DNA of 24,644 bases from Candidatus Thorarchaeota archaeon (GCA_029858305.1 JAOUFI010000029.1:1-24644), one strand, 5' to 3'. Positions 388 to 22,064 are shown, counted from the first letter of the stretch. The notes: generated by a model from the sequence alone, not told the origin. Program-made: numbers and translations.

Positions 388-3300
388 TCATTCATCCTCA
401 TCAGATTCTAATTCTGTAATATCTTCAGATGGTTCGATTTCTATTTCTTTCTCTTCAATGGAATCGATATCCATGTCTGATGCACCTTCTTCCATGGTGG
501 TGGAATCTGAAACGACTGGATCCTTATCTTTCCGAACTCTAATGTTCGATGCGCGGTTCACAGCTTGCACGATTTTTGATGAGATAAATGGTATCACAAC
601 CAAAAATGCAACAGGCATGAGCACAATCACGCCAAGTTCATAGCTTTGTAGAAAGTCCATAGTTGTGACAGCTGCAGCTCCAACAACTACGAGGAACATT
701 AGGAATTTGATTCTGATTGAGGAGCTGTATCTATTGATCATTGTGTCTTTCTCATCTTCGATGATCGGACCTGGGGTGTTAGCATCCTGCATTTTCTTGA
801 GTTTCTTGAGACCACTGCTGACTTCTCTATAGAGATTGACAACAACGACAAGGATGGATGAGACATACGCTACAAATATCGTTGTCATGATTGATGGAAT
901 AGATATGCCAGCAACCTCGAATGCTTGGTCTATCATATTTGCCTTAAACCAATCAATCTCAGTTCCATAGTTGAGAATCATTATGATTACTACTGGTACA
1001 AAGAATAGATGCCAGAGACCTGCGAACATTCTCTTTCTACTTAGAGTTCCTCTGATCATGACTGCGGATACCGCATCTCGATAGAGCCATAACCCATAGA
1101 GAAGTACAGAGGCTCCTAGAAGTGCCACAGTGAGTATTAGTGCACCAGCATAATCACCAATAGAATTGAATCCCCATGAAGTTAGGATGCCTAATGCACT
1201 GGCAAAAACTATCATGAGATAGAGTCTATCCATGCGTTTCACAGATTTTCTTAGCTCTTCCTTACTCGTCCCAGTTCTACGAAGTGATGGAGAAATTCTG
1301 AAATAGATAAACATGCCAATCAGGCTAACTGCAAAGGATATGCCAGCAAACGAAGCCACTGTTTGAGCATCCATGACGCCAATATCAGGATTAGCGACAT
1401 ATAGGTAGAATGTATCTGTTGTTTCAGAGGATTGGACAAACTCGCCCGAAGCCATAACCAAAATGTCCTTTGTTCCATATCCTTCAGTAATTGGTAAGTG
1501 TTCGATGAAGACAATATAGAGTCCAACCAGGTCAGTTTCTTCTGCTCGCATAGTTGGCATATTCATTATAGTAATGTAAACTTCAAGTCCAGGGACCGGA
1601 TTTCCATATGCATCTATCACGGAGACAGAAATTAGCAACGAGTCTCCTTGAGTAGGAATTTCTGTATTGAAATCTACGAAGAACTCCAAAACTCCAAGTA
1701 CAGTGATATTACCCCTAATCGGATCCCCGGTCTGGATGTCCTCATGATTTACAGCTGCCGTGTATTCATATTTTCCTGGTGCCCAACCAACTGTGGATAC
1801 ATTGACTGCATAGAATCCTGGAGTAATCTCAATCAGATTATATGCTAAAGCCTTCACATAGAATGAAACTGTTGCACCAGAAACGGGTCTATCCAACCAG
1901 TCTCTTAGGGTCAACTCCAATCTTGTCCTATCACCCTGCAGAATTGTCCAACCATTTGTTGATACTATTGCAGCGGAAGCAGAGGCATCAGTATATGCTC
2001 TTATTCGAAAGATCTCCATCCATGGTGATGCATATGTTGCATTGACATAGATTGTGAAATTATTTGGCCCCATTAGGAAATCTGCAAGCATAGTCAGATT
2101 ATAGTCTGGATCGCCTGCCGAATTGATCTGGGTATATCTTGTCCCATTTATTTCAATTGTTACGCTTGTTCCAATAAAGACCGGTCCATATTTGTCTTTG
2201 ACAAAGACATGGACCTCGAACATAGAACCGCCCTCCACTCTAGTTTCATAGAAGACATTTGGTTCTAGTTCACCATAGACTTCGAAGCTGATAACGGTAG
2301 CAGGAGGACCAACGATGTTTGGTGTATCTACATTTAGGTCAAAACTGTGATCTCCGATTCCTAGATTCATACTATGAGTAAACCTGTAGCTTCCCAAGTT
2401 TGTTGAGCTCTCAATCAATGCGAAGACTTTTGGCCCACTCCTAAGTGTAACAACTGCGCTAATAATTGGATGTCCATAGGCATCTGTGATGTTGAACCAA
2501 GCATCCAGTGGTTCGTCCTGTTGAACTGTTGCTGGGAAGTTTGTTGATATAACAAGGTTTTCAGTTAATACCTGAACGATGAATGCCTTGGCTATCATAC
2601 CCACTGCGAGAGCATAGGGATGGTTTGCTCTAGCGACAACAACATGAATCCCCGCCTCAAGCTGAACCTCAGGAATATCTAGAATGTGTGATTTTTCAAT
2701 AGCTGTTGTAGCATATACAACACTGTCAATAGAAATTGTGACGGTGGCTCCTTCTACAACACCTCCTCGATTATCAAAGACAATTGCTCGAAACGAAGTG
2801 TTTGCACCTTGTTGTACAATATCAGGAACTTGCAAATCTACATGCAGCTCGCTTCTGACAATAAATACATCTGAGTAGAACATGTTGAATAGATGGTAGA
2901 ATCCATTGTCCACTGCAATGCTTAAGCTTACGGTCCCTATTGGCCAAGAAACATCCAATACCGCTGAGTATTTGCCCGCGCCTTCCCAATAGTAGAATCC
3001 GTATGTATTGGCACTTGGACCCTCAGGCACAAAGTAGTGAGATGTTACGAAAACATTTGCATCGTCTATGACCTCGCCATAAATGTTGAGAACAGTGACA
3101 TTAACTTGAACACTCTCTCCTTGTATTAGATCTGTTGACGAATATGACATTGAAACATCAAGAAGATAGCTACTATCAAGGTTCCTGACTGCTCCAAGAA
3201 TCATACGATTTATTGATGCAAATGGGTAAGTTGCAATTTCAACTCCTGGTACCATGTCTATATTCCCAATGACGAGAGGATTGCGAACCTCGCCCACCTT

Positions 3301-6042
3301 GACTGTCCATTCAACCTCTCCACCGAATGAAACAGATGTTAGGCGTTCATCTTGATCAGTAAATAATACAAACTCATCTTGATTATCTCCATCAAAGTCA
3401 GCAACAGTGGCACTTAGTGGTGTTGCACTAGTAATAGGTGTAACCCAGAGTGTTGAGAGTGATATATCTGCACTTGTAAGGAGAAGTTCTCCTGAGCTCA
3501 ATAGTATAAACAGCTCATCTGTGCTGCTCCCACCAGTATTATGCGCAAACACGTATTCGATATCTTGATGGGGAATTGCATAGTATGGTGTGTCATTCAC
3601 ATTTGTTGTCGTACTATCGAAGATAAAGATACGACCAGTGGGATCGGAACCGTTCCAGTAGTTTACTGCGGCAACGAACTCTTCGCGGTTATTGAACGAG
3701 TCATATCTACTCCATAAACCTACTGGGACTTGATCAGAATAGGCACTCAATCCGACATCAAGTGACCGAATGAAAGATAGATCCCCAGCATTGTGTATAT
3801 CGATTTCTAGATTCGATCTGAGAATGGCAATATATCCATCACCTGCAGTAGGAGAGTTTATCACAGAATAACTTCGAGGTACATCAACACCCACAAGATC
3901 CACTTTTGACCAACTTGCATCAGAATCCATTTTTATCAAAGATAATGGTGTTGTATCAGATACAAGCAGCAGTTCTTGATTTCCATCTCCATCATCATCT
4001 ATGACTCCCAGATAATTGAAACTCTTGTATGGGAACGGACATATTCCCTCATCTATCAATGACAAATCATTTCCATGAAATACGTGATATCCAAGGAAAG
4101 ATCCACTCTTATAGTAGTAGTCAAGGATAATGATGTCTGCCACGTTATCTCCGTCAAGCATAGCTGTATAGACTTCAAAATATTCCCAAACATTGCCTGT
4201 ATTCACTATGGTCACGGTATCAAGCACAGTCCCACTGCTTGAATATTGCGTGAGTGTGAGGTCTTCAACTCCCATCTCTTTTTCTATAGTGTAAATTACT
4301 TTCTGACCATCTGAGAGATTCCCAAGGTCTGATTGATGAGCTCTACTAGTTACATAATCCGTACTACTCCTATCAACCTGCCATACAAAATGACCTGCTA
4401 CAGTGAAATTTAGTGGATGTGTGGAATTGCCTAGATTCATTGTATTTAGGTATGTATCTTGAAACTCCATATAGTACTCATAGATACCGGATTGGAGATT
4501 TCCAATGAAAGCATAATATAATCCTTCACTATGTGATGCATACATCTCTTCTTGAGGTTGTACCCAAATTCCACTACCCCCAACTCTCATGAAAATATCT
4601 GCATACTCGATTTCTGATGCTTCATCAATTTGCACTTTGACAGTAACATAATCGTCAAGAATTGTTGGGTGAGCTGGATCTATAGGCAACTGCAATACAT
4701 CAGGCGGTGTTGAATCGCTAAGAAGCAGATACACGTCACCTAACACTCTGCAAATCACATCTACTCGTGAATCAAAATTCGCATCAATAGCTTCTATTTG
4801 ATAGGAAGACGAAACGCTTCGAACATCGATCAGATATTCAGTATACGCCCTTTTGCCATCTGCACCCCGAATTATCCCAAGTCCGCCATCCATTGTGCCT
4901 GTTGCAAGATCATCAAGTTCATCACTGTCCATTCGCCCCACATCTTGCCGCTTAATGCTTGACAAGTAAATACCGCTAGTTTCTCTTATTGCAAAGCCCA
5001 AATTACCATCTCTGAAGTATGCTTTTTCTTGGTTACGACTTATGATTACTAGATCGTCTTGTGGATTAAGATTGAAGTCACCAGTTTGGATTGTTCTATA
5101 TGAACTTACAAGAGGATCTACATTTACTGGCGCAAATGACGGAGCAAGAGTAGGTCCTGAATATACAACAAGGTCTCCGTTTGATTGAATTGTAGCAATT
5201 TCCTCCAGTCCGCCCAACCAATCAAATGTTACCATATCTTGCACAGCTGCACTCAGCATGGTATAATCAAGCTGGGTTCCATTAGCTGCTACGAGAGTCA
5301 GGTTTCTATGTGAAGTTGTTCCTGCCTGATTAGCCAAAGCTATTGAGTCCTCCGTTGGACTCGCAAACTTGCCTACAACAATGTCAACATAGCTATAATC
5401 AACATTGAACAATCCTATCGTGACATTTGATGTTAGATCGAGGGTCATGAAGTTATCATTGTTATTCGTGTTTTTTATGACTACATCAGGGAAAGCATCC
5501 CCGTTGAAATTGCCAAAACCAACTGCTGCAGGATAGTTGAAGGGTATTGGATACTGGAGCACAGTCGCATCATCTATGTCAACAACTAGAATATAGTACT
5601 GAGGATTGACGTAGTTGCGTATCAAGAACTCTGAATCACCATCATTATCAACATCATAGCCAACAATACCAGAACCAAGTCCCTGATCCCCTGTCGGAAG
5701 TGCAATATCGAAGGATACATCGTTTAGGATATCCACAAAGTATAGCCTGTCCTCATCATCTATAACATAGGCAAGTCCTTGATATCCTTGTACCGTTCCG
5801 GTGGTAATTTGGATGTTCGAAGCGCCGGGTAATGAATAGTGAAGGAGTGATTGTGACGGTATGAATCCGGCACCTTCTTCTAAATACGAGGTTGAGGTTG
5901 GTGATAATGAACTTAGAATAATTGGTGCAACCAGCATGAATGAAATGAAAAACAATGAAAGCAATCTAATCATACCAAGATTATTCGAAGTCATAGGTTC
6001 CGATTTTGGTCTAAATCTGCTCTCTCTTTTCATTATACTCAT
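388..6042 (-). CDS. Giant (~1,884 aa) cell-surface protein: signal peptide, FG-GAP/VCBS-like propeller repeats, Ig-like repeats, 7-TM C-terminal domain, acidic tail
   Basis: Uninterrupted ORF. The track starts at TTG 6120; ATG 6042, preceded by GGGGATG, is preferred. Repeated DxDxDG-type motifs (DVDNDGDSE, NFNGDAFPD, LDGDNVAD, DDDGDGNQE, DFDGDNQDE). Six (D/N)xxGxx(I/V)xxAxV repeats. Seven hydrophobic segments at ~580-1362. Confidence 0.9.
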   Translation of the reverse strand: MSIMKRESRFRPKSEPMTSNNLGMIRLLSLFFISFMLVAPIILSSLSPTSTSYLEEGAGFIPSQSLLHYSLPGASNIQITTGTVQGYQGLAYVIDDEDRLYFVDILNDVSFDIALPTGDQGLGSGIVGYDVDNDGDSEFLIRNYVNPQYYILVVDIDDATVLQYPIPFNYPAAVGFGNFNGDAFPDVVIKNTNNNDNFMTLDLTSNVTIGLFNVDYSYVDIVVGKFASPTEDSIALANQAGTTSHRNLTLVAANGTQLDYTMLSAAVQDMVTFDWLGGLEEIATIQSNGDLVVYSGPTLAPSFAPVNVDPLVSSYRTIQTGDFNLNPQDDLVIISRNQEKAYFRDGNLGFAIRETSGIYLSSIKRQDVGRMDSDELDDLATGTMDGGLGIIRGADGKRAYTEYLIDVRSVSSSYQIEAIDANFDSRVDVICRVLGDVYLLLSDSTPPDVLQLPIDPAHPTILDDYVTVKVQIDEASEIEYADIFMRVGGSGIWVQPQEEMYASHSEGLYYAFIGNLQSGIYEYYMEFQDTYLNTMNLGNSTHPLNFTVAGHFVWQVDRSSTDYVTSRAHQSDLGNLSDGQKVIYTIEKEMGVEDLTLTQYSSSGTVLDTVTIVNTGNVWEYFEVYTAMLDGDNVADIIILDYYYKSGSFLGYHVFHGNDLSLIDEGICPFPYKSFNYLGVIDDDGDGNQELLLVSDTTPLSLIKMDSDASWSKVDLVGVDVPRSYSVINSPTAGDGYIAILRSNLEIDIHNAGDLSFIRSLDVGLSAYSDQVPVGLWSRYDSFNNREEFVAAVNYWNGSDPTGRIFIFDSTTTNVNDTPYYAIPHQDIEYVFAHNTGGSSTDELFILLSSGELLLTSADISLSTLWVTPITSATPLSATVADFDGDNQDEFVLFTDQDERLTSVSFGGEVEWTVKVGEVRNPLVIGNIDMVPGVEIATYPFASINRMILGAVRNLDSSYLLDVSMSYSSTDLIQGESVQVNVTVLNIYGEVIDDANVFVTSHYFVPEGPSANTYGFYYWEGAGKYSAVLDVSWPIGTVSLSIAVDNGFYHLFNMFYSDVFIVRSELHVDLQVPDIVQQGANTSFRAIVFDNRGGVVEGATVTISIDSVVYATTAIEKSHILDIPEVQLEAGIHVVVARANHPYALAVGMIAKAFIVQVLTENLVISTNFPATVQQDEPLDAWFNITDAYGHPIISAVVTLRSGPKVFALIESSTNLGSYRFTHSMNLGIGDHSFDLNVDTPNIVGPPATVISFEVYGELEPNVFYETRVEGGSMFEVHVFVKDKYGPVFIGTSVTIEINGTRYTQINSAGDPDYNLTMLADFLMGPNNFTIYVNATYASPWMEIFRIRAYTDASASAAIVSTNGWTILQGDRTRLELTLRDWLDRPVSGATVSFYVKALAYNLIEITPGFYAVNVSTVGWAPGKYEYTAAVNHEDIQTGDPIRGNITVLGVLEFFVDFNTEIPTQGDSLLISVSVIDAYGNPVPGLEVYITIMNMPTMRAEETDLVGLYIVFIEHLPITEGYGTKDILVMASGEFVQSSETTDTFYLYVANPDIGVMDAQTVASFAGISFAVSLIGMFIYFRISPSLRRTGTSKEELRKSVKRMDRLYLMIVFASALGILTSWGFNSIGDYAGALILTVALLGASVLLYGLWLYRDAVSAVMIRGTLSRKRMFAGLWHLFFVPVVIIMILNYGTEIDWFKANMIDQAFEVAGISIPSIMTTIFVAYVSSILVVVVNLYREVSSGLKKLKKMQDANTPGPIIEDEKDTMINRYSSSIRIKFLMFLVVVGAAAVTTMDFLQSYELGVIVLMPVAFLVVIPFISSKIVQAVNRASNIRVRKDKDPVVSDSTTMEEGASDMDIDSIEEKEIEIEPSEDITELESDEDE

Positions 6043-6271
6043 CTTAGATACATCCCCAGTATTCTTGTTCGTTGTTTTATTCTCATTAGTCCTGAGAAAC
6101 ACTTGTTCAAATCCTCTCAATGCCTAACTCGCAGGGCGAATCCTAAAAGCGCTGCTCAGAAATGTTCAGTTTTCATCCTTTTATCGATTCTGTGCTTCTC
6201 CTAAAGTAGAACCAATAATCTAAATATGATGCAGCTCTAGCAGAGCATTCAGGTATTTGGAGGATGCCATA

Positions 6272-7633
6272 ATGGTTGAGCATATCGCTGTAATCGGGTG
6301 CGGAGCGGCTGGTGCAACCGCCGCGTTACAAGCCCGAAAATTCGATCGGAAAGTGGCAATTACACTATTTAATTCTGAGAAGTACTCCCAGTACTCCCGT
6401 TGTGGTTTACCTTATACAATATCTGGGAAGGTCAAAAACTTTGAAGACCTTGTATTAATGCCTCCTGAGAGTTGGGCTGGATTAAATATCGATGCGAAAC
6501 TTGGCTTTAGCATAACAGACATTGATCACAAAAAACGTGAGCTCTTCTTCAGCGGTGCAGATGGTGAAGGAAAGCAAGCATACGACTCGCTCATCTTTGC
6601 GACAGGCGCAAAGAATGCAGACCCTCCCATCAAGGGTCTTGATAAGAAACGTGTCTATGGTCTTCGAACCCTTGATGACGCAAAAGCCCTTGCAAAAGAA
6701 GCTGACAAGGCAAAGAACTCTGTCATCATAGGAGGAGGCTTAGTTGGAATGGAAGCCGCAGAAGCATTTCATGAACGCGGACTCAACGTGACTGTCGTGG
6801 AGTTTTTGCCTCATATTCTTCTTGCAATGGTAGATCCGGACATGGCGCAGATTATTGAAGATCATTGCAGAGCGCATGGTCTTAAGATACTCAATAATAC
6901 TGCTGCTCAAGAAATTCTTGGAGGAGATAGCCCATCCAGTGTGACTGTGAAGAACAGGGAAACCGAAGAGGTTTCAAAGCTTCCTGCAGACTTCGTTGTC
7001 GTGGCAACAGGTGTGCGACCTGTAACCAATTTGGCTCAAAAGATTGGAGCTGATCTTGGACCCAGCCATGGCATCAAAACAGATGATAGAATGATGACAA
7101 ATCTGAAAGATGTATATGCTGTTGGTGATTGTGCTGAAAATTTAGAGTTCATTACTCGAACTCCTATGGCAGGTGGTTTGGGAACTGTAGCTGTTCGCCA
7201 AGCTCGGGTCGCAGGAATTAACGCTGCTGGAGGCGATGTGCGTTTTCCTGGTATTGTTGGGGCTAAAGTCACTAAGTTGTTTGGGCTTGAAATTGCTAGC
7301 ACTGGGCTTACAGAAGATATGGCTAGTCGCCTAGAAGTGCCGATTGTTAAAGGATCCATAAAAGGAAGCACGAAACCTCCTTATTATACGGGAGGGCAGG
7401 ACTTGAAACTTAAAACCTTCTTCAATAAAGATACGGGCAAACTTGTTGGAGGTCAATTAGTTGGTCTTGAAGATGCTGCAATGAGATTGAATGTTTTGAC
7501 CTTGGGAATCCAGCAGGATATAGATGCTGACGAGCTCTTTGATTTTGAAAATTGTTATGCTCCAGCAGTTTGTGATACCTGGGATCCCTTAGTTCAATCT
7601 GCTGATGTTGCAAAAAAAAGGTTGAAACGGTAA
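6272..7633 (+). CDS. FAD-dependent pyridine nucleotide-disulfide oxidoreductase, CoA-disulfide reductase/NADH oxidase family
   Basis: FAD motif GCGAAG; single active-site Cys in YSRCGLPY; ATGA; NAD(P)H motif GGGLVGME followed by VVE (suggests NADH); YAVGDC; C-terminal YAP. GGAGG at 6259-6263 precedes ATG 6272. Confidence 0.92.
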   Translation: MVEHIAVIGCGAAGATAALQARKFDRKVAITLFNSEKYSQYSRCGLPYTISGKVKNFEDLVLMPPESWAGLNIDAKLGFSITDIDHKKRELFFSGADGEGKQAYDSLIFATGAKNADPPIKGLDKKRVYGLRTLDDAKALAKEADKAKNSVIIGGGLVGMEAAEAFHERGLNVTVVEFLPHILLAMVDPDMAQIIEDHCRAHGLKILNNTAAQEILGGDSPSSVTVKNRETEEVSKLPADFVVVATGVRPVTNLAQKIGADLGPSHGIKTDDRMMTNLKDVYAVGDCAENLEFITRTPMAGGLGTVAVRQARVAGINAAGGDVRFPGIVGAKVTKLFGLEIASTGLTEDMASRLEVPIVKGSIKGSTKPPYYTGGQDLKLKTFFNKDTGKLVGGQLVGLEDAAMRLNVLTLGIQQDIDADELFDFENCYAPAVCDTWDPLVQSADVAKKRLKR

Positions 7634-7645
7634 TCTCTAGATGCA

Positions 7646-8140
7646 TCAGTCGTTTCTGATAATTTTGATGTTATGAAGAGCAAATTGGAAGGAACTCAAC
7701 TGAATGGGTGAGCTCGCTACTAGGATTATTCTATCAAGAGTGGTTCCTGTTTTCACATGGTCATAGACTGCTTTGACGATTTCCTCAGCAACTTCCCAAC
7801 TTGGCATTCTTGCAATCTCAAGAGCTAATGTGAAGAATCCGACACTTGCAACCTTTACATCCTCAGCATCTTTCAAAGCATCTTTTGCGGCTTGATAGAC
7901 GATTTTTCTTCGATTTGGATTCTGTATAGATACGCTGGGCCAATGTCTTACTATTTCCGCATTAGCTGCCTCTTTTATAGAAATCTCAAAACCGCTCGCC
8001 CCGCGCACACTGCCCTTACCATTTTTTTGTGATAATCCAACTGGAATACTCGGTGCTTTAACTACAAGACCCATTTCTGAATCGTCACATGGTCCTAATT
8101 GAACCGAGACATCAACGCCTCTAAAATCGTGATGTTCCAA
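7646..8140 (-). CDS. Hypothetical protein, probable degenerate macrodomain-fold paralog
   Basis: TTG start 5 nt after the macrodomain stop, with GGAG upstream. The C-terminal half aligns by eye with the neighbouring macrodomain but lacks the Gly-rich loops. Confidence 0.65.
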   Translation of the reverse strand: MEHHDFRGVDVSVQLGPCDDSEMGLVVKAPSIPVGLSQKNGKGSVRGASGFEISIKEAANAEIVRHWPSVSIQNPNRRKIVYQAAKDALKDAEDVKVASVGFFTLALEIARMPSWEVAEEIVKAVYDHVKTGTTLDRIILVASSPIQLSSFQFALHNIKIIRND

Positions 8141-8145
8141 AGTCT

Positions 8146-8673
8146 TTACTCCTGCACATCATCGATTGCTCGATAGAAGCAATCGCAAGTATGCTTACTA
8201 AGTCCAACAAGTGTTATTTCCTTTACTGACCCCGAGCTTCTTGAGTAGTGCATGATACCTGTAGCAATAGCTCTTGCGGATTCTTGTTCTGTGAGCCCTC
8301 CGACACCTGCACCAATTGCAGGAAATGCTACCGATCTCAGATTATGGTCCGTAGCGATATTCAAAGCATTCTGTACAGACGAGGTGACTTTCCAAAATGT
8401 TGCCTTTCCTCCAGGCGGCATGCCAGCACAATGAAGCACATAGCGCGCAGGTAAAGCTCCTCCGCTAGTCATAACTGCATCTCCCGGCTTAATGGGCCCC
8501 AATGACATCGCTTCTTTCTCTATCTCAATCCCGCCCTTTGCCTTGATAGCGCCTGCTACGCCGGAGCCCATCCAAAGATCTGAGTTGGCCGCATTAACAA
8601 TTGCATCGACAGATAAGTCAACGATACTGCCTAGATAGGTTCTAACTACAATGTCCCCGATTTTTCTCTCCAT
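8146..8673 (-). CDS. Macrodomain protein (AF1521/YmdB-like ADP-ribose binding/hydrolase)
   Basis: VDAIVNAAN...GSGVAGAI, GDAVMTSGGALPARYVLHC, RSVAFPAIGAGVGG. ATG 8673 is preferred because the upstream extension overlaps the divergent gene. Confidence 0.93.
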   Translation of the reverse strand: MERKIGDIVVRTYLGSIVDLSVDAIVNAANSDLWMGSGVAGAIKAKGGIEIEKEAMSLGPIKPGDAVMTSGGALPARYVLHCAGMPPGGKATFWKVTSSVQNALNIATDHNLRSVAFPAIGAGVGGLTEQESARAIATGIMHYSRSSGSVKEITLVGLSKHTCDCFYRAIDDVQE

Positions 8674-8773
8674 GACGTTGCCTACCTTTATCGAGTGTGA
8701 TAATGTATAGGTGAACGTTTTCGTAAAAGGTTGTTGTTCCACAATGCTTTTTGGCAAATCAGCAGTACCTGAG

Positions 8774-9364
8774 ATGGCGAGTTCCCTGAACGAGATTAAT
8801 AGTGAGGAAATGAGGTCTCTTGTTGAGAGGTATGGTGAACCGAGAAAGAATCGCTTCTCTGCTAGCTTTCTTGACTTTGAGTGCCAATTTGTGAAACAGA
8901 GCCGAAATAAGGGGCGCCTTCACGATGTAACTTGTTTTATTAGAGAACCTACAGGAGATTATGTGGTGATTCAAAAACACCAGTATGCCAATTCTGGAAT
9001 ATATCGCGCACCTTCAGGCGGTGCATCGTTTGGCGAGCCAATTGAGGAAGCCATACATCGCGAGATGAAAGAAGAAACCGGTCTTCAGATTCGCCTTGTC
9101 AGATTTGTTCTCGATCTCACTCTTGACATTGAATGTGAAGAGGAAACGATTTTGTGGAGATCTCTTGTTTTCTTAGCCGAACCAGTCGCAGGCGAGATGA
9201 AACCTATCGATACCCATGAAATATTTAATGTTGGCGTGATGAGCCGAGAGCAGCTCCTCGGCGAGGTAGACAGATTGATGGTTGAGTCTGGCTGGGGTGG
9301 TTTTGCTTACAGGGCTTTTCTGACTCGCGAGTTTTTCAAGAGTCTTGATGAACTTAATATCTAA
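8774..9364 (+). CDS. Nudix hydrolase
   Basis: Complete Nudix box G-x5-E-x7-REMKEETGL. ATG 8774 is preferred over GTG 8711; the exact start is uncertain. Confidence 0.9.
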   Translation: MASSLNEINSEEMRSLVERYGEPRKNRFSASFLDFECQFVKQSRNKGRLHDVTCFIREPTGDYVVIQKHQYANSGIYRAPSGGASFGEPIEEAIHREMKEETGLQIRLVRFVLDLTLDIECEEETILWRSLVFLAEPVAGEMKPIDTHEIFNVGVMSREQLLGEVDRLMVESGWGGFAYRAFLTREFFKSLDELNI

Positions 9365-9760
9365 CCCAGTGTTACTCGATTCCATATTGTGCAGATGTAT
9401 TGAAAAAATCAGAGCAGAGGAAAACCAGCATGATGAATTTTCCTGGCGATTTCATGACACTTGAAATTTTAATTTCCTAACCCCACGATCCTGCTGCCAT
9501 CTTCTGCTCTTTACTTCGTTATTTCATTTGGAGCGTTCCTATTAATCGGATGTAGTGCACAATGCAACCTCTGCTTTATGCGCTTCCTACCGGAGGTATG
9601 ACCTGTAGGTCAAAAAAGCCATCTTTTTTGTTTAGGCTTCCTCCTCAGAGTAGCACTGTAGGCGGACTGCACATTTCGTAACGAGTTCAAATTGATCAGC
9701 CGTTTTTCAACTTTCAATTTACTCTCAGCAGTTCAACCGTATTCCCATTTGAAGGTTTCA

Positions 9761-9809: not shown

Positions 9810-10856
9810 TTATCGCATTGTCAATGCCATTACAGCTTTCTGTGCGTGGAGTCTATTCTCCGCTTGATCGAAAGCAATAGACTGTGGTCCGTCAATTACA
9901 GAGTTGGAAACCTCAAAGCCACGATCGCACGGAAGACAGTGCATATAGGCTGCTTTTGGTCCTGCGATCTTCATCATATCATCATCACAAATCCAATGTT
10001 TGTTCTTATCGAACACCACCTGTGACTTCTCTAACTCTGGTTTGCTGTTGAACGGTGGAATGTACTGTTTACATGTCCATGCTTTCGGATATACAACATG
10101 CGCACCTTCAAAAGCTTCTTCCATGTCATTTACAATCTCGAAGCTTGATTCATTCTCCTCTGAGAAGACCTTACAATGATCAATGATTTTATCGTCGAGT
10201 TCCATGCCTTTTGGATGAGCTAGAACTGTATCACATCCCATCTTGGTAGCGGCAATGATAGCACTCTGTGGTACTGCTAAGGGCTTGTGAACAGATGGAG
10301 AGTAGGCCCATGACATGACGAATTTGACTCCCTTAAAGGTTCCAAATTTCTCTTTGATTGTCATTATGTCTGCGAGACCCTGGCATGGATGGTAGATATC
10401 GTCTTCCATGTTTATCACTGGAATATGACTCCAATGCGCAAAATTCCGGATGACCTCATTTGCACGACCGTAAATCCAGCCAACAGGGTCTCCATAACAA
10501 CGAATCGCAATGCCATGACCCATTCGTGCGAGAACGCGTGCCACATCTGATACACGTTCTGTGGAATAGGCTTTCTCGTCGCCTTCAAGTGCTGGAGCAT
10601 ATATCTTACCGGGATCCAAGAAATGAGCGTGGCCGCCCAATTGTGTCATTCCAGCCTCGAAAGAGTTGCGAGTGCGTAGACTCTGGTTATAGAAAATCAT
10701 GAACAATGTCTTTGCATCGAGAAGCTTGTGAGGTTCACCTACCGCAAACTTTCGTTTGAGGTCGAGGGCAACCTCTAGGAGGGTTTCTATCTCCTCCTTT
10801 GAATAGTCCAGCAGGGTGATGAAGTCCCTGCCTCGAAAACTTTCTGTTTTAACCAT
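9810..10856 (-). CDS. Carbamoyltransferase of the ATCase/OTCase superfamily, YgeW/N-acetylornithine carbamoyltransferase-like subgroup
   Basis: Carbamoyl-phosphate motif SLRTR, HPCQ, HCLP, AENRLH. WAYSPSVHKPLAVPQS and YPKAW stand where canonical OTCases have DGxNN and DxxxSMG. Confidence 0.9.
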   Translation of the reverse strand: MVKTESFRGRDFITLLDYSKEEIETLLEVALDLKRKFAVGEPHKLLDAKTLFMIFYNQSLRTRNSFEAGMTQLGGHAHFLDPGKIYAPALEGDEKAYSTERVSDVARVLARMGHGIAIRCYGDPVGWIYGRANEVIRNFAHWSHIPVINMEDDIYHPCQGLADIMTIKEKFGTFKGVKFVMSWAYSPSVHKPLAVPQSAIIAATKMGCDTVLAHPKGMELDDKIIDHCKVFSEENESSFEIVNDMEEAFEGAHVVYPKAWTCKQYIPPFNSKPELEKSQVVFDKNKHWICDDDMMKIAGPKAAYMHCLPCDRGFEVSNSVIDGPQSIAFDQAENRLHAQKAVMALTMR

Positions 10857-11107
10857 AGTAGGTCACAACCGCACTAACCACAACGTTAGTTGTAGAAAAA
10901 GATTGCCTACTGGACCAAATAATAAAAACACCCAAATCAACCACAGTGTGAAATTCTTATCTATTACACTCTCTCTAAATCGGCTCTACACACTTCTTCG
11001 CTGTTTTCGAGGTTTTCTATAAAGGACAACTGCAATCCCAGCTTTTCTCCCAATGTTTAAGAGAAGCCATGCATATTAGATTGGAATCTAGATAAGAGGA
11101 GACGTTA

Positions 11108-13714
11108 ATGTTGATGAAGAGAAAAGTCTTGAACTTGGGTCTATCCTTCATAGGGCCAATTGCTTTGATAGTGATACTGACTATGCCAATCGGCCCACTT
11201 GCTGGAGGATTACAAATACTTCAGCCATGGGGTGGTATTTTCGATGTTGGAAAAGGAATCCAGCATGGGGGTAACGAAACTATTGCCCTTCCTGACATGC
11301 TATCAGGTGCTGAAGTAATCGTCGATGAGTGGGGTATTCCTCATATCTATGGCGATACTCTCGAGGATACATTCATGGCCCTAGGATACATGCACGCTCG
11401 TGACCGATTGTTTCAGATGGTGATGCAGACATACCTTGCATCGGGACGGATATGTGAAGTGATTGGAGGAGCTGACTATGCCATTAACTCTGATAAATAT
11501 CAGCGTGCGATAGGTCTAGTAAAGGCTGCAGAGGAAACCTATCAATGGTATGTTGATAATGCAGATACAAATGAAGATGTAGACTACTCCTTGCGAGCGA
11601 CTCTTGCTCATGTCGCTGGGATTAATGCCTTCATCGACACAATGACTAGTGACAACACACCTATTGAATTCAAAATTCTAGGATTCACTCCAAGTCATTG
11701 GACTCCTATTGACTCATTTACGTGGGCAAAGTATATGACATGGTCATTATCAGGAGGTGTGTATGACCTAAGAAGAGAATTCGTTAGAAATCAACTCGGA
11801 AACGATTCATTATATGCTGATATCTTTCCTGAATTCTACCCAAACACGATTCCTATCATTCCTGAACAATACAATCTCAGTCTAATTGATTATGCTGATG
11901 CGCCTGGAGGGTATCCTGCTATGCTAGTTCCCCCTCCAAGTATTCTATCTGAAAATGAACCTATCGCACAGATATCAGAATCAAAATTAAACGAACTTCT
12001 CAATATCGTATCCAGCAACATCAATCTTCTCGGTGATAGTGTATTTGTGGGTAGTAATAGCTGGGCTGTTAACGGAAGTAAGACCGCAACAGGTCAAGCT
12101 ATGTTAGCCAATGATCCACACTTAAGTCTCCAAGCCCCATCTCTTTGGTATGAAGTGCACCTTGTAGTGTTGGATGATGATGAAGCACTAAATGTTCAAG
12201 GAGGCAGTCTACCAGGAACTCCTGGTATCCTGATTGGACATACGGAGCATATTTCATGGGGTATGACGAATGTAGGAGCTGATGTTCTCGATATCTTTGT
12301 TGAAGAGCTAAATCCAACTGATCCAACACAATATCGGTATAACGGCGATTGGGTCGACTTTGAAGTTCGAGAAGAGGTGATTCATGTCAAGGGAAGAGCT
12401 GATATTCACTTCAATGTCAGTTGGTCATTGCATGGTCCATGTATAGACTCCGTAATGAGTACATATACCTCAGACACTGAAACATCTTATCCCAACATAG
12501 CCATGAACTGGACTGGCCTTAGCATAACTCATGAGGTTTTGACGCTTGGAATCCTTAATCGTGCACAAGATATCCAAGACTACTATGATGCAATGTATTG
12601 GTGGGACTCGCCGCCTCACAACTTCATATATGCTGATGATGCGGGAAATATTGCTCTCACTGTTGCTGGTCGATTCCCTATACGCCAGGGGTATTCCGGT
12701 AACTTCCCTGTGACAGCAACAAATGACTCAGTCGGAATGATTAGCAATATCCCATATGCTTTCAATCCGCGCTCTGTAAATCCATCGCAGTGTTTCTTGC
12801 AGTCTGCAAACCAAAAGTCGATTGATCCATCAACCTATGGTTTTACTATCCTAGGTGCTCAAAGCCCAGACTACCGTGGTGAACGAATTCATACTTACTT
12901 AGATGGAAAGACTGGCATCACTGTGAATGACATGATGCAGCTTCAGGCTGATGTCCTTGACTTAACTGCAGAGAAAATGCTTCCCTATGTTCTTGCTGCT
13001 TGGACATCATCAGGTGAAGTGAATACTACAATTCAAACCCTTGTCGATGAATTGACCGGTTGGAATTATGAGATGGAGATTGATATTGCAGCTCCAACTA
13101 TTTGGACCTATCTCCTCGAAGAGATTCGATATGTTCTATTTGATGAAATACGTGATGCGGATCTTCCTGCAACCCTCGCGCAAATTCCTATCGTAGAATG
13201 GGTACTCAGTGCACCAATAGATTACTACATTGATGACCACTCTACGGTCGCAATTGAGTCTATGGATGAAATCCTTGTGCAAGCTATGCATCGCACTGCA
13301 AATAATCTTTATGCACTTGGTGATGATCCGTCAGAGTGGCTATATGGTCACTATCATACTATTTTCATAGATCACCTAGCAGGAATGACCTATATTGGTG
13401 GTGGAGCACATCGAGGAAGCGGCTATACAGTCAATGTTGGTGGAGGATGGACTGTACAACATGGTCCGTCACGGAGAATGGTTGTCAGTTATACAGAAAC
13501 TCCAGAATATTACACGGTGTATCCTGGTGGTCAGAGTCAGGTAATGTTCAGTCAACACTGGGATGATTTGTTTGAGCTCTGGTATGCCTATGATCCCATT
13601 CTAGGTCACTATGGCTATACACTGGAATATAACTATGCAACAGCGATTGCGTTCACCAATGCCAACGATGGAACAATGATCGAATACATCATCTTATTCA
13701 TACCAAGGGGGTAG
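11108..13714 (+). CDS. Penicillin acylase family Ntn hydrolase (peptidase S45), N-terminally membrane-anchored/secreted
   Basis: DEWGIPHIY, ALGYMHARDRLFQM, autoproteolysis site GS|NSW region (GSNSWAVNGSKTATGQAMLANDPHL), PGGQS. N-terminal hydrophobic segment. GAGGAG upstream of the ATG. Confidence 0.95.
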   Translation: MLMKRKVLNLGLSFIGPIALIVILTMPIGPLAGGLQILQPWGGIFDVGKGIQHGGNETIALPDMLSGAEVIVDEWGIPHIYGDTLEDTFMALGYMHARDRLFQMVMQTYLASGRICEVIGGADYAINSDKYQRAIGLVKAAEETYQWYVDNADTNEDVDYSLRATLAHVAGINAFIDTMTSDNTPIEFKILGFTPSHWTPIDSFTWAKYMTWSLSGGVYDLRREFVRNQLGNDSLYADIFPEFYPNTIPIIPEQYNLSLIDYADAPGGYPAMLVPPPSILSENEPIAQISESKLNELLNIVSSNINLLGDSVFVGSNSWAVNGSKTATGQAMLANDPHLSLQAPSLWYEVHLVVLDDDEALNVQGGSLPGTPGILIGHTEHISWGMTNVGADVLDIFVEELNPTDPTQYRYNGDWVDFEVREEVIHVKGRADIHFNVSWSLHGPCIDSVMSTYTSDTETSYPNIAMNWTGLSITHEVLTLGILNRAQDIQDYYDAMYWWDSPPHNFIYADDAGNIALTVAGRFPIRQGYSGNFPVTATNDSVGMISNIPYAFNPRSVNPSQCFLQSANQKSIDPSTYGFTILGAQSPDYRGERIHTYLDGKTGITVNDMMQLQADVLDLTAEKMLPYVLAAWTSSGEVNTTIQTLVDELTGWNYEMEIDIAAPTIWTYLLEEIRYVLFDEIRDADLPATLAQIPIVEWVLSAPIDYYIDDHSTVAIESMDEILVQAMHRTANNLYALGDDPSEWLYGHYHTIFIDHLAGMTYIGGGAHRGSGYTVNVGGGWTVQHGPSRRMVVSYTETPEYYTVYPGGQSQVMFSQHWDDLFELWYAYDPILGHYGYTLEYNYATAIAFTNANDGTMIEYIILFIPRG

Positions 13715-13718
13715 AAGC

Positions 13719-14144
13719 ATGAGAAAATTGAATGTAATATTTCCCGACCTAGGACTCTTCCCGGCCTTTGTGATTACTCTAGTTCTTTCCATTGTGCTTC
13801 AGCTGAGCGGTGCATGGATTACTATGTTTCTTGTTGGAGTACTAAGTTCTATGTTTGTTAGACGACATAGGACTGCTTTTGGAGTAGGTTTCTTTGGTGT
13901 ATTCATAGGGTGGTTGTTTATATTCGTATATCTTATCCTCACAGCACAAGCACTTCCTATTGCAGACTTCTTTATTGGTTTGCTGGGACTTGGAGGATTA
14001 GGCTGGCTTGTCATTGCAATCAGCTCCATTATAGGCGGACTTCTCGGGGGTTTTGGAGGCCTTCTGGGTCGTTCGATAGTGGACCTGGTCGATGAGCTAC
14101 TTCCCAATGAAGCTGGAAAGGAAACGAAAGACAATAATCGATAA
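13719..14144 (+). CDS. Small Gly-rich multi-pass membrane protein, unknown function
   Basis: Starts 4 nt after the acylase stop. About four hydrophobic helices, with GxxxG-like repeats (GGLLGGFGGLLG). Confidence 0.8.
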   Translation: MRKLNVIFPDLGLFPAFVITLVLSIVLQLSGAWITMFLVGVLSSMFVRRHRTAFGVGFFGVFIGWLFIFVYLILTAQALPIADFFIGLLGLGGLGWLVIAISSIIGGLLGGFGGLLGRSIVDLVDELLPNEAGKETKDNNR

Positions 14145-14170
14145 GAGCTATGGGAGGAGAACCATAGCTC
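14145..14170. terminator. Hairpin between convergent genes
   Basis: Perfect 9-bp stem GAGCTATGG (14145-14153) / CCATAGCTC (14162-14170) filling the gap between two stop codons. Confidence 0.6.
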
Positions 14171-14172
14171 TC

Positions 14173-14715
14173 CTATTTTGTTTTTCTGAAGACTGGCATA
14201 CTCAGCAAGCATGCAAGTCCGAGTAGACCTAAGGTGATTAATAGGAAAAGCGGCTGGCTATCATTTGGATGATTGACTGTTCCATCAATTGTCTTCATAT
14301 AGATTGAATTATTGTAATGAACTAAGAACCAGGTGCCATTACTCGGGACTATGAAACTCCATGATAGTTCCATTACATTAGTCTTTGAATAGTCTGAATT
14401 GAAGGTGTTGCTTTCAGAGAACAAAACAAAGTTGGAGTAATTCAATATATGGAACTCAATTCCCTCAAAGATCCAATTATCATACTTTTGCTCATCTCCA
14501 AAGTATAGACTTCCATCACTACTAGACTTGAAGCTTCCCGAGATTGTGTCCTCTTTTTCACAATCGATTGGAATTGCATTCCATGACATTGCATCTAGAA
14601 TGAAATTATACTTATTATTTGAGCCAGAGGGTAAAAACATCCCTGAATACCAAAGACTGATACCTGAAGCGAAAACAATCATAAAGAGCAAGAACAGGTA
14701 TGTTTTCCGAATCAA
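14173..14715 (-). CDS. Membrane-anchored beta-rich protein, GOLD/emp24-gp25L-p24-like (tentative)
   Basis: N-terminal signal/TM; beta-strand core (DTISGSF...IEFHIL...SWSFIVPSNGTWFLVHYN...KTI); C-terminal TM; short basic tail. TTG start with GAGGT upstream. Confidence 0.7.
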   Translation of the reverse strand: MIRKTYLFLLFMIVFASGISLWYSGMFLPSGSNNKYNFILDAMSWNAIPIDCEKEDTISGSFKSSSDGSLYFGDEQKYDNWIFEGIEFHILNYSNFVLFSESNTFNSDYSKTNVMELSWSFIVPSNGTWFLVHYNNSIYMKTIDGTVNHPNDSQPLFLLITLGLLGLACLLSMPVFRKTK

Positions 14716-14918
14716 AACATCAGACCTCTAGCTGTTGTTGTATTGAGTCCTTATTGACTCTTTATACTTACCCACCTATCAGCTATTATCCCCTTTATCA
14801 TAAAAATCTCAGGAAGCTTCCCAACCATCTGGAATGCAAGTTTCGATATTATTCTCTAAATAAACAATGAAATGGTGTATTTGTGTTTACGTTCCCTAGT
14901 TAGGATTTTTAAAACTCA

Positions 14919-15830
14919 TTAGACAGGTAGTTCCCCTTCATCCATGGTTGTGAATGCTCTAAACAAAAATAACATCGACAGCCCGATGAAGAAGAGAATC
15001 GCGACAAATGATCCCATGAAGATTGTTCCTGTAAATGGATTAAAAGTAGGAATGTCGTATTGCCAGCGAGTAAAATCTGACAACACTGCTATGATGTTCA
15101 GAGTAATTGCCATTCCTACATATGAAAGAAGAAATCCAGCGAAATATGCACCTCTAATGAGCCAGATGCGTCTTTTCATTGTTTTTTTCTCCTGTAAGGA
15201 CAAAACCTCCAGTCTTGCTCCTTGTTTTTGAGTTTGCTCTTCGATACCATTGTTCTGAGCTACTCCAGCTGTTGCACTCCTTATTAGTCGTGCATCATAT
15301 CGATCATCAAGTCTACTGCTTACAAATCCCGTTGCGCTACGCCAAGTCAAATCCTGTTGACGCCTAAAGAGATTATTTATGAGATATAGACTGCCACAGA
15401 ATGCGAAGAGTCCCACCCAAAGGGGTGGCTGGACAGTTAGAACTACTGGGATGTAGTAGAAGGTGACATTGTACGCAACCATTGCTATTCGAAGAGAGAT
15501 TATCAAGGTCAACCAAAATGTATCAGGTCCACTTGGATGATTCCGTGTGTGAAGGTAATAGGAGCCTGCAAGCATGCAGAAGAAAGTAAATCCCATTATA
15601 TTGATAATAGCCCAAAGAGGCCACAAGCCACTTGCTATAAACCATCTTGTTACGGGATTGAATTCAACATCGGGACCAAACTGACTAGTCATTGCCACGG
15701 TGTAGACTGTATCTACTATCCCTACTGGTATCAACATGAGGACAAGACCTCTTACCCAGCGTACTTCCCACCAAAGTGATGCCATTTTTCCGGGCGAGAT
15801 GGTGTTTATTTCTCTCATATTGATAACCAC
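14919..15830 (-). CDS. Multi-pass membrane protein with a DUF5658-like N-terminal domain
   Basis: DTVYT...G...EFNP motif, about 6 hydrophobic segments, and a polar linker before the last two helices. Start GTG 15830 or ATG 15818. Confidence 0.7.
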   Translation of the reverse strand: MVINMREINTISPGKMASLWWEVRWVRGLVLMLIPVGIVDTVYTVAMTSQFGPDVEFNPVTRWFIASGLWPLWAIINIMGFTFFCMLAGSYYLHTRNHPSGPDTFWLTLIISLRIAMVAYNVTFYYIPVVLTVQPPLWVGLFAFCGSLYLINNLFRRQQDLTWRSATGFVSSRLDDRYDARLIRSATAGVAQNNGIEEQTQKQGARLEVLSLQEKKTMKRRIWLIRGAYFAGFLLSYVGMAITLNIIAVLSDFTRWQYDIPTFNPFTGTIFMGSFVAILFFIGLSMLFLFRAFTTMDEGELPV

Positions 15831-16176: not shown

Positions 16177-18132
16177 TTATACGTAGGGGCTGTAAGCTTC
16201 TCCCGCATCGTAGCCAGCATAGTCCTTGTACATGTGATAGAAGTAGAAGGAATACACTCCTGACAATGGGTTCCACTTCAGACCGTCACCATGCACCCAA
16301 GTTCTCCAGACTCTCAACTCACCTTGCTGATATGTCCAGAGGTATGGGTAGTCATCGGCCATAGCCTGTAGAATCCAACTATAGAGCTTTGTACGTTCTG
16401 TGACATTAGCGGTCTTAGCTTGCATGTACCAGGCATCAACGTTGGTGTTGTTGTAACGGATTCTGTATCCGTTTGTCCCACGGCTGTAGCCGAATGGGAA
16501 GATGAAGTTATCAGGATCAGGGTAGTCTGGTCCCCAACCAACGAAGAAGAGCATGACCTGTCTGTAACGAGTGTAGGCCAAGTAGTTTGACCACTCTAGA
16601 GCCTGAACGGTAACAGTGACACCATCTGGGAAGGCGGTCATGTTCGCGTCATCATGAGCAAGGACATCCTCTAGACCATCCTTAATCAGCAGACAACCTT
16701 GCTCACGCTCGGTGTTTCCGCTGTTGTAGAACAATTGAATGGTGTTAGGTGCTGCTGTGCCTGTGCTAGTAAGAGTACCAGCCATATTAGCTAGGAAGGT
16801 GGGATCTAGTACTGCTTCGTTCCACATCTCTACAGCCCTTGTAATGTTGTATTGGATATCTGTAAAGGCTGTAGTGTTGTATCCTAGTAGTCCGAGCGGA
16901 ATTGGACCAGAGTCAGCTCTGAAACCAAAGCCTTGGACTGCTGCAGCCAAGAACGCATTGTAGTCGAAAGCGTATGATACACATTTCCTTATTGCTAGAT
17001 TCTGGAATGGGCTGTTGTAGAATGTACCAGCAGTTGTGTTGACCTGAGCTAGGTTGAATCCCATGAAGGTCAAACCATAGCCATATCCTGCCTTTGAGAG
17101 GTAGATAGTCTCAGGATACAATGATGCGGCAGTGACGTTGTTATAGACATCCTGTGCATTGGTTCTTGGAACCAAAACTGCATCTGATGTGCCTGCTCTG
17201 AGATTTAGGATCCTACCGGTTACATCCTCGTTAGTTCTGAGGTAAATATGCTTGATTGAGCCAGCATATGTTGGAGCACTAAAGGTTCTCCAGTAGTCTG
17301 TATTCAATTCCAGATGAATGTATGAGTCAGGAATCCACTCTGTGAGCATGTAAGGACCTGTTCCACATGTATGAGTGACCATGTAGTTTGGATCTGATAT
17401 TGGATCTTGCAAGTAGTCTACGCCGAAGGTGTCCCAAGTTGTGAATCCCTCGTCTGCGTGAGCCAACACAAATGTTGGGCTCATCATGGCGCTAGCAGTG
17501 TAGGTCAGGATTGGCATGAAGTAGCCGAATGAATCCGTCAAAACAAACCTCACTGTGAACTCGTCAATTACTTCAATTCCTTCGCCACTTTCGACCCAGG
17601 CATCAAAGGTCTCTTGGAACAGAGTTGCGTTGCCACTGAAGGCTGCATCTTCTACTGCTTGACCACCAACGACGCACTCAGCGATCATCCAGAATGGACC
17701 ATCAAGGTAGAACATTTTTGCTGCTCTGTAGATGTTCCACTGCACAACACTGGCGTTAAATGGTGTTCCATCGTGGAATACAACATTTTGCCTAAGCGCA
17801 ATGGTGTAGTTCTTCCCACTGTCTGCTATTACCGGAGCAGATGCTGCCAAGTTTGGCCGCAAATCCGCTGTTTGGGTACTTTCACTCCCAAATGGGGGTG
17901 AATACAACGTCTCATAGACGTTATAGAATACAAAACCACCATAGTTCTCATAATCTGCGTGTGGGTCCATAAACTGGGGGTTGCCTATTGTTTCAAATAC
18001 GAAAGTGTCCTCAAGTGGACGTGATGGTCCGGTCATGAGGAGAAAAGCAACACCAGCGCCCGCCACGACGACTATAATGACGACGATGGCTATTAACTGA
18101 TTTCTTTCCAAAGTTTTTTGTTCCTCCTTCAT
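16177..18132 (-). CDS. dppA: Peptide/nickel ABC transporter substrate-binding protein (family 5, DppA/OppA-like)
   Basis: MDPH, NVYETL, LRQNVVFHDGTPFNA, GTGPYML, IRKCVSYAFD, GWGPDYPDPDNF. N-terminal TM anchor, no lipobox. Divergent from dppBCDF. Confidence 0.93.
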   Translation of the reverse strand: MKEEQKTLERNQLIAIVVIIVVVAGAGVAFLLMTGPSRPLEDTFVFETIGNPQFMDPHADYENYGGFVFYNVYETLYSPPFGSESTQTADLRPNLAASAPVIADSGKNYTIALRQNVVFHDGTPFNASVVQWNIYRAAKMFYLDGPFWMIAECVVGGQAVEDAAFSGNATLFQETFDAWVESGEGIEVIDEFTVRFVLTDSFGYFMPILTYTASAMMSPTFVLAHADEGFTTWDTFGVDYLQDPISDPNYMVTHTCGTGPYMLTEWIPDSYIHLELNTDYWRTFSAPTYAGSIKHIYLRTNEDVTGRILNLRAGTSDAVLVPRTNAQDVYNNVTAASLYPETIYLSKAGYGYGLTFMGFNLAQVNTTAGTFYNSPFQNLAIRKCVSYAFDYNAFLAAAVQGFGFRADSGPIPLGLLGYNTTAFTDIQYNITRAVEMWNEAVLDPTFLANMAGTLTSTGTAAPNTIQLFYNSGNTEREQGCLLIKDGLEDVLAHDDANMTAFPDGVTVTVQALEWSNYLAYTRYRQVMLFFVGWGPDYPDPDNFIFPFGYSRGTNGYRIRYNNTNVDAWYMQAKTANVTERTKLYSWILQAMADDYPYLWTYQQGELRVWRTWVHGDGLKWNPLSGVYSFYFYHMYKDYAGYDAGEAYSPYV

Positions 18133-18503
18133 TAAAACTGAAGTTGGTTTGCTAAGTTATAGATTGGATTGTGATCACATAGGGTTGAATCATCCACCGC
18201 GATGTGTTAGAATATCAACCCATGGTATCAACGACTTGTGAAGCAGAACGTTATAAAGCTACGGTTTTCAGAGACGGTTTGTGAGGATATCGTTATTCGT
18301 ATGTCTGGTTTTGAGATTACCACTGTAGGCTCAAAACAGCATTATCCGAGATTCCCGCAATTCGAACCAGACACCCATTTCTTAAGCCCTAGATGGCTCT
18401 AATTTCACCGAGAACCATAGACTTAAAAACTGGCCACGCTCAACTTGCGCTCCAGAAGCACATAGCTGGATGCGCTAGAGCAATCCGGAGAGTGATTTGG
18501 CAC

Positions 18504-20826: not shown

Positions 20827-20834
20827 AACAGGAG

Positions 20835-22061: not shown

Positions 22062-22064
22062 AAG

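Follow-up and report, generated by a model that had tools for sequence, protein, structure and literature searches.

Does a giant surface protein that ends in seven membrane helices use them for more than holding itself in place? The question is raised by a gene in a 24,644-nucleotide stretch of DNA from Candidatus Thorarchaeota archaeon (GCA_029858305.1, JAOUFI010000029.1:1-24644; the whole stretch is called the window here, and positions are counted from its first letter). The gene (388..6042, (-) strand) encodes a protein that runs from an N-terminal signal or anchor segment through an ectodomain of FG-GAP and immunoglobulin-like (Ig-like) domains and seven hydrophobic helices to an acidic tail. 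The membrane part is better read as 1+6, that is, a less conserved first transmembrane helix (TM1), a basic linker and a conserved six-helix core (TM2-TM7). This module has no described fold and looks built for more than holding the protein in place; we put the probability at about one half that the core is a built-in partner or transducer subunit, which couples the ectodomain to the membrane and the cytoplasm and is more than an anchor. The 1+6 anatomy, a branch with zinc ribbons, the shuffling of ectodomains and a split-gene form are new here.

One separable helix and a conserved six-helix core

Hydropathy analysis (Kyte-Doolittle, sliding window of 19 amino acids (aa), threshold 1.5) revealed seven strong segments at the C-terminal end, at residues 1561-1579, 1607-1625, 1635-1653, 1672-1690, 1717-1735, 1780-1798 and 1803-1821. 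Seven long helices are also present in both AlphaFold2 models of the module, and the segments are exactly those listed in an initial annotation made from the sequence. Loops 1, 3 and 5 contain 8, 4 and 8 lysine or arginine residues and the first part of the tail 6, versus 0 in the N-terminal flank and 0, 1 and 0 in loops 2, 4 and 6; by the positive-inside rule this bias predicts an N-out/C-in topology, and it agrees with the loop charges described in the annotation. Loop 5 (TM5-TM6) is, with 42 aa, the longest cytoplasmic loop of the window protein, again as annotated. A sister branch within the family lends independent support to a cytoplasmic C-terminus, since 22 of the 59 members scanned carry a double zinc ribbon after TM7 and a zinc ribbon is a domain expected in the cytoplasm. 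The outcomes that would have contradicted the annotation did not occur: the helix count was seven, no sign of a C-out topology was seen, and nothing among transporters, permeases or sorting domains matched with confidence.

TM1 (residues 1561-1581; 1300..1362, (-) strand) joins the ectodomain to the membrane and is predicted to run from outside to inside. It was delimited by hydropathy and modelled with a predicted local distance difference test score (pLDDT) of 65-76. It is followed by a basic linker with 8 lysine or arginine residues (residues 1582-1604; 1231..1299, (-) strand), placed in the cytoplasm by its charge, and by the core (residues 1605-1823; 574..1230, (-) strand), which was delimited by alignment and by AlphaFold2. 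The cytoplasmic tail (residues 1824-1884; 391..573, (-) strand) opens with a basic stretch and continues as an acidic, poorly conserved part of low model confidence (21 aspartate or glutamate residues). The border between TM1 and the core is visible across the family: phmmer matches of distant members begin at TM2, the linker is the site of a gene split in one lineage, and in the zinc-ribbon branch it is long (60-130 aa) and lysine-rich. The window protein, which serves as the reference, has TM1, the basic linker and the six-helix core with its conserved residues.

In an alignment of 32 rows (A1: the window module and 31 homologues, mostly Thorarchaeota-labelled), TM1 and TM2 were the least conserved helices, with a mean top-residue frequency of 0.56-0.60, followed by TM4 with 0.69 and by TM3, TM5, TM6 and TM7 with 0.77-0.81. 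Invariant in A1 are the motifs YGLWLYRD at the inner end of TM3, WHL..VP in TM4, NLYRE after TM5 and SSIRxKF before TM6, as well as prolines in TM7. Family-wide, in 59 aligned module sequences taken from genome loci and from fragments, P267 (module numbering) is invariant, while W155, P173, K236 and F240 are found in at least 90% of the rows. The helix halves hold 3.53 bits of information on the cytoplasmic face versus 3.18 on the outer face in A1, and the loops 2.66 versus 2.44; that the cytoplasmic face is the conserved face was dropped as an argument, as the difference is only small.

The first AlphaFold2 model, built on the 32-row alignment, reached a pLDDT of 71.5, and the second, built on the 59 sequences, a pLDDT of 84.3 and a predicted template modelling score of 0.77. 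In the second model TM2-TM6 exceed a pLDDT of 90, while TM1 and TM7 lie at 65-78. The modelled helices are 34-39 residues long and would reach 11-20 residues past their hydrophobic cores on the cytoplasmic side; the outer TM4-TM5 loop is modelled with a short helix and a beta-hairpin. An internal duplication of the core was considered, but comparison of the hairpins TM2-3, TM4-5 and TM6-7 and of the halves gave hhalign probabilities of 2-10%. A two-copy homodimer model of the module (alignment A3) scored 0.03 against a mark of 0.42, which is evidence neither way.

The core is kept under different ectodomains and as a separate polypeptide

Among 63 homologues shorter than 2,000 aa, the median identity to the window protein was 64% in the module, versus 35%, 36% and 48% in three ectodomain segments; in 29 longer paralogues it was 47% in the module versus about 30% in the ectodomain. 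The module was found fused to at least four ectodomain types (BNR_2, FG-GAP propellers, CarboxypepD_reg/SpaA and Invasin_D3-type). On the two points that the initial annotation proposed for checking, taxonomic range and ectodomain variety, the module thus occurs with several ectodomains, and its labelled members are Asgard only.

In one lineage the module is divided between two genes. At locus L057 the first gene encodes 941 aa, comprising a signal sequence, the ectodomain, TM1 and a basic tail, and the second encodes 345 aa, namely the six-helix core followed by a double zinc ribbon (DZR). The second gene starts one base past the stop of the first, and a GGAGG motif precedes its start. As far as TM1 and the linker, the 941-aa product aligns collinearly (E 6e-54) with the fused protein of locus L044. 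Six clusters of 342-357 aa represent the stand-alone core protein, with 60-100% identity and a common starting point, and the split is therefore an inherited gene arrangement and no assembly error. As TM1 stays with the ectodomain in this lineage, anchoring does not need the core, and the core is nevertheless kept adjacent. The two-gene form offers a direct handle on the question of coupling. Convergent to the stand-alone core and zinc-ribbon gene of L057 lies a Ras/Rab-type small GTPase gene (934-1491, (+) strand; Pfam Ras, E 7e-43); this proximity may be chance, because Asgard genomes are rich in Ras/Rab-type small GTPases.

The C-terminal parts vary as well. Zinc-ribbon tails occur in 34 of 163 long family proteins, and 129 lack them. 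Tails of at least 15 aa occur in 66 of these 129, and 97% of them are net acidic; the remainder stop just after TM7.

The module matches no described family or fold

Pfam (matches listed to E 1) gave nothing on the membrane part of the window protein, and NCBIfam nothing significant on the whole protein; these scans also revealed no catalytic output domain, in agreement with the initial annotation. When the membrane parts of all 59 members were scanned to E 0.1, no Pfam family was found, and only zinc ribbons and remnants of ectodomains matched. DUF2207_C appeared in 5 of the 59, with a best E of 0.0035, and was dropped as it remained under the cut-off. A family profile compared with Protein Data Bank (PDB) sequences matched only zinc-ribbon proteins.

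At the level of structure, Foldseek returned no PDB match at E≤1e-3 for either AlphaFold2 model. For the model with pLDDT 84 the best E was 0.25, the query-normalised template modelling score (TM-score) was at most 0.32, and the top rows were designed helical bundles. In the ESM Atlas the best scores were 0.78 for the window module and 0.82 for a second query (P0222), with a structural TM of at most 0.42; these are sub-threshold leads, to other zinc-ribbon membrane proteins. Chains from G protein-coupled receptors (GPCRs) headed the PDB list of the first, weaker model with E 0.07-0.4, but their TM-scores of 0.15-0.25 and root-mean-square deviations of 16-17 Å mean that they do not superpose, and they dropped out with the better model. 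The phrase "as in GPCR-type 7TM receptors" in the initial annotation therefore holds for the layout and not beyond it: no match to 7tm_1/2/3, GPS/GAIN, rhodopsin or 7TMR-DISM families was found, nor a PDB fold. The membrane module is an orphan: no sequence link joins it to GPCRs, to rhodopsins or to another described family, and no fold link was found in the PDB. Full-text literature searches found the family described nowhere; these proteins may be listed in the asCOG tables that accompany Liu et al. (2021), and a passage of PMC9258230 cites that paper for "integrin repeat-containing ESPs" in Asgard genomes.

The family among Asgard archaea

With the last 340 residues as query, a word-indexed search returned 115 proteins of 1,036-3,297 aa. 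An organism label was attached to 40 of them, and all 40 were Asgard (Thorarchaeota, Promethearchaeota, Sifarchaeia, Odinarchaeota and Lokiarchaeota). An exhaustive phmmer search over 1.84 billion cluster representatives gave 123 matches at E≤1e-3, 61 of them at E≤1e-10, and every match sat either in a fragment or at the C-terminus of a long protein. Ten distant clusters were examined, of which two were labelled Lokiarchaeota and one only "archaeon". The named members of the family are thus restricted to Asgard lineages. Within the phylum of the window 101 of 400 genomes gave a match, 89 of them strong (E at most 6e-17) and 12 weak and partial; two of the weak ones that were opened (L064 and L065) resemble unrelated membrane open reading frames (ORFs). 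In the window's own family 56 of 85 genomes matched. The module family is a widespread and strongly conserved part of the Asgard cell surface.

The genome of the window holds a paralogue, a 2,504-aa ORF that ends in the same module with 41% identity (G000:C119:107890-108864, locus L002). In the 903 C-terminal residues covered at this locus, Invasin_D3 matched above the cut-off, and Big_1, Wzt_C and Big_7 below it. Forms of about 1,850 aa and of about 2,500 aa coexist in several genomes of the window's genus. At another locus (L037, G282:C191) two family members stand in tandem (5158-9570 and 10866-15356, both (-) strand), one with a double zinc ribbon and one without, which looks like a local duplication in a genome of the zinc-ribbon clade.

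A quick maximum-likelihood tree was calculated from 64 module sequences, leaving out L001, a duplicate of the window, and rows with fewer than 200 profile positions. It grouped 28 rows in the clade of the window (Shimodaira-Hasegawa-like approximate likelihood ratio test, SH-aLRT, 98) and 19 rows in one zinc-ribbon clade (SH-aLRT 100), and it also set apart a group of long paralogues and several small clades without zinc ribbons. The tree is the result of the quick search only, and long branches leave its deep order unsure.

The gene and its ectodomain

The frame is a single very long ORF at 388..6120 on the (-) strand, open over 1,910 aa and reaching upstream as far as a TTG at 6120. Read from the ATG at 6042, it gives 1,884 codons plus a stop at 388-390, and the product is identical to the recorded protein (P0002). 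One DNA run spans the whole stretch and may be what it was assembled from, and RNA runs number 0 among the 9 runs listed for it. An N-terminal hydrophobic segment (about residues 25-46; 5905..5970, (-) strand), with a Kyte-Doolittle score of 2.4 at residues 25-43 and a basic n-region before it, may be a signal peptide or an uncleaved signal anchor; the N-out/C-in topology is consistent with either. The beta-rich ectodomain itself contains two weak hydropathy peaks (residues 844-862 and 1142-1165, scores 1.5-1.6).

Above Pfam cut-offs, the ectodomain matched FG-GAP_3 in three stretches, Big_1 and Invasin_D3. The first FG-GAP-type propeller region covers about residues 90-470 (4633..5775, (-) strand; approximate borders). 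It contains an FG-GAP match under the cut-off (residues 171-194, E 0.32) and calcium-loop-like motifs at residues 128 and 176, and a profile of 32 family members matched an FG-GAP-type esterase here among PDB sequences (E 3e-4). The second region (about residues 600-960; 3163..4245, (-) strand; borders again approximate) holds the best FG-GAP_3 stretch, at residues 838-892, and calcium-loop-like motifs at residues 680 and 880. It is followed by a stalk of Ig-like domains (about residues 1000-1545; 1408..3045, (-) strand), which matched Big_1 at 1467-1504, Invasin_D3 at 1370-1399 and, more weakly, YtkA/DUF7382/A2M at 1061-1113; the same 32-member profile matched the intimin-family Ig chain 4e9l in the stalk (E 9e-5). 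Integrin alpha-V propellers were marginal matches of the family profile (E 0.05-0.1), and the single ectodomain sequence found no PDB sequence with phmmer. N-glycosylation sequons were not enriched in the ectodomain (17, versus 12.6±3.2 in shuffled sequences; 121 of 1,000 shuffles reached 17). The adhesin-type ectodomain proposed initially is borne out by Pfam and by PDB profile matches, and taken together with the hydropathy scan these make the description "propeller-Ig-7TM" correct.

The core as a possible partner subunit

How might such a protein work? Two FG-GAP-type propellers and the Ig-like stalk would stand outside the cell, TM1 would take the chain across the membrane, and the basic linker would lead into an autonomous six-helix module with both ends in the cytoplasm, followed in the window protein by the acidic tail. 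The core would then couple the ectodomain, engaged in contact or adhesion, to the membrane and the cytoplasm. In the Lokiarchaeota-labelled branch the cytoplasmic side carries a zinc ribbon; in the branch of the window it has an acidic tail or nothing. TM1 alone could probably anchor the protein, and the core is retained and better conserved even as a separate polypeptide; its likeliest role is therefore that of a partner subunit. In layout the protein is adhesion-receptor-like, and it has arisen independently of GPCRs. If the module indeed couples outside contact to the cytoplasm, it would represent a prokaryotic adhesion-receptor system independent of GPCRs and integrins.

Several observations weigh against this proposal. 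No gene neighbour of the family is conserved beyond close synteny. Many orthologues stop directly after TM7 (median tail 15 aa), so that any signal would have to exit via the short inner loops. The higher identity of the membrane helices is partly an effect of their restricted composition, and the AlphaFold2 model gives only moderate confidence for TM1 and TM7. Moreover, the cytoplasmic face is only slightly better conserved in A1 and not at all family-wide; the conservation signal thus lies in the intramembrane helices and would fit a packing, channel or lipid-facing role equally well. Signalling of contact across the membrane, as suggested in the initial annotation, stays an inference, one that is helped by the split genes, the conservation of the core and the zinc ribbon of the sister branch.

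The best-surviving alternative, which we still hold to be unlikely, is a purely structural base: the seven helices would be the anchor or lattice foot of a major surface-coat protein in cells without a classical surface layer (S-layer), and nothing would be transmitted. Cryo-tomography of a cultured Lokiarchaeon, as described in a passage of PMC9834061, showed one single membrane and complex proteins at the surface without an ordered S-layer, and a passage of PMC11284389 on glycoproteomics of Promethearchaeum reports that an S-layer protein was not found. The presence of one to three copies in most genomes of the window's family, unlike a variable adhesin, the absence of an output domain, the nearly tail-less orthologues and the peak of conservation inside the membrane would all suit such a foot. 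The split lineage, however, keeps TM1 with the ectodomain and yet maintains the core as a neighbouring gene, and the invariant polar and proline residues (in YGLWLYRD, WHL..VP, NLYRE and SSIRxKF) together with the zinc ribbon exceed the needs of an anchor. Even a mere foot of the surface coat would be a new solution to membrane anchoring.

A narrower version of the partner-subunit proposal, which we regard as doubtful, makes the core the transducer half of an Asgard-specific contact receptor, in which a pull or ligand on the ectodomain would pass via TM1 and the core to cytoplasmic partners. Output might then use the zinc ribbon in the Lokiarchaeota-labelled branch, and the inner loops or the acidic tail in the branch of the window. 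According to a passage of PMC9834061, the surface proteins of cultured Asgard archaea are thought to mediate the cell-cell contacts of syntrophic life; a contact receptor would be a candidate for what makes up the complex densities on the surface of cultured Asgard cells.

That the core is a channel, transporter or intramembrane enzyme tethered or gated by the ectodomain, for example a tension-gated pore, seems improbable. Conservation is strongest in TM3 and TM5-TM7, with invariant glycine, proline, serine, threonine and histidine within helices, and both ends of the core are predicted to be cytoplasmic, as in many six-helix transport units. Nevertheless, no transporter, channel or protease family was matched in Pfam, NCBIfam, PDB sequences or PDB folds, no internal repeat was detected (hhalign probability ≤10%), and no cluster of acidic or basic residues lies in mid-membrane. 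Finally, a diverged relative of GPCRs or microbial rhodopsins, as an archaeal forerunner of adhesion GPCRs, is close to refuted: the gross layout is alike, including the long inner TM5-TM6 loop, and GPCR chains led the first Foldseek list as described above, but Pfam gave no 7tm, GPS/GAIN or rhodopsin match in 59 of 59 members, the unit that is conserved starts at TM2 and has six helices, with TM1 separable, and the sole lysine of TM7 lies at its cytoplasmic end instead of in mid-helix.

Comparison with known receptors and adhesins

Adhesion GPCRs (class B2) share with the window protein a very large adhesive ectodomain, seven helices and the N-out/C-in orientation. They can exist as two non-covalent pieces, which resembles the two-piece form of the split-gene lineage. 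However, the window protein has no 7tm_2 or GPS/GAIN match in Pfam and no fold match in the PDB with Foldseek. Moreover, the conserved Asgard unit is TM2-TM7, and the split follows TM1, within the cytoplasmic linker, instead of preceding it on the outside. Among the GPCR features compared, seven helices and N-out/C-in are present as predictions, while a 7tm_1/2/3 or Frizzled sequence match, the bundle fold and GAIN/GPS were absent; for microbial rhodopsins, neither a Bac_rhodopsin match in Pfam, nor the fold, nor a lysine in the middle of TM7 was found. Bacterial 7TMR-DISM receptors are likewise prokaryotic and join an extracellular sensor domain to a membrane part of seven helices, and they carry cytoplasmic enzymatic outputs. 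The Asgard protein differs in showing no 7TMR-DISM_7TM or DISMED match and no enzymatic output.

Integrin alpha and prokaryotic FG-GAP/VCBS propeller proteins also combine FG-GAP-type propellers with subsequent Ig-like domains at the membrane. Integrins, however, are single-pass heterodimers, whereas the Asgard protein has two propeller regions and a multi-pass base, and no integrin beta-like partner gene was found near it. The stalk is similar to intimin/invasin-type Big_1 adhesins, as it matches Big_1, Invasin_D3 and an intimin-family PDB chain; those adhesins are held by a beta-barrel in the bacterial outer membrane, while the Asgard protein would be held by helices in the archaeal cytoplasmic membrane. 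Giants of the polycystin-1 type have an ectodomain of Ig-like repeats, a first helix, a cytoplasmic insert and further helices, and judged by this general description they resemble the Asgard protein in the lone first helix, possibly the long cytoplasmic segment, and the later bundle. The Asgard module has, unlike them, no TRP-like or other channel match in sequence or fold and no pore loop.

Neighbouring genes

Conserved neighbours of the family gene reflect synteny of close relatives only; they are functionally unrelated, and none is family-wide. Of 25 loci, 5 share the divergent upstream gene for a pyridine-nucleotide-disulphide oxidoreductase, and three loci of the Loki branch have a 461-aa protein without known function beside the family gene.

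Further along the window, a Macro-domain gene (8146-8757, (-) strand) and a NUDIX gene (8711-9364, (+) strand) are divergent, with predicted 5' ends that overlap by 47 bases, and the pair would suit the handling of ADP-ribose. Together with a 164-aa ORF without assignment (7646-8140), it is syntenic in three related Thorarchaeota loci. A gene for an aspartate/ornithine carbamoyltransferase (9810-10856, (-) strand) adjoins one for an 868-aa protein of the penicillin-amidase family (Ntn hydrolase; 11108-13714, (+) strand; Pfam E 2e-177). Three ORFs of 303, 180 and 141 aa (14919-15830, (-) strand; 14173-14715, (-) strand; 13719-14144, (+) strand) have no family match, apart from a faint one of the 303-aa ORF to TMEM43 (E 0.006). 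An oligopeptide-type ABC importer occupies 16177-23096, with a family-5 solute-binding protein on the (-) strand and two permeases and two oligo_HPY-tailed ATPases on the (+) strand; a related solute-binding protein is the main glycoprotein of a cultured Asgard archaeon, according to a passage of PMC11284389. The last gene (23545-24642, (+) strand) runs off the end of the window and encodes a flavodiiron-type protein with an ODP/metallo-beta-lactamase domain and a flavodoxin domain, which is likely to detoxify O2 or NO in an anaerobe.

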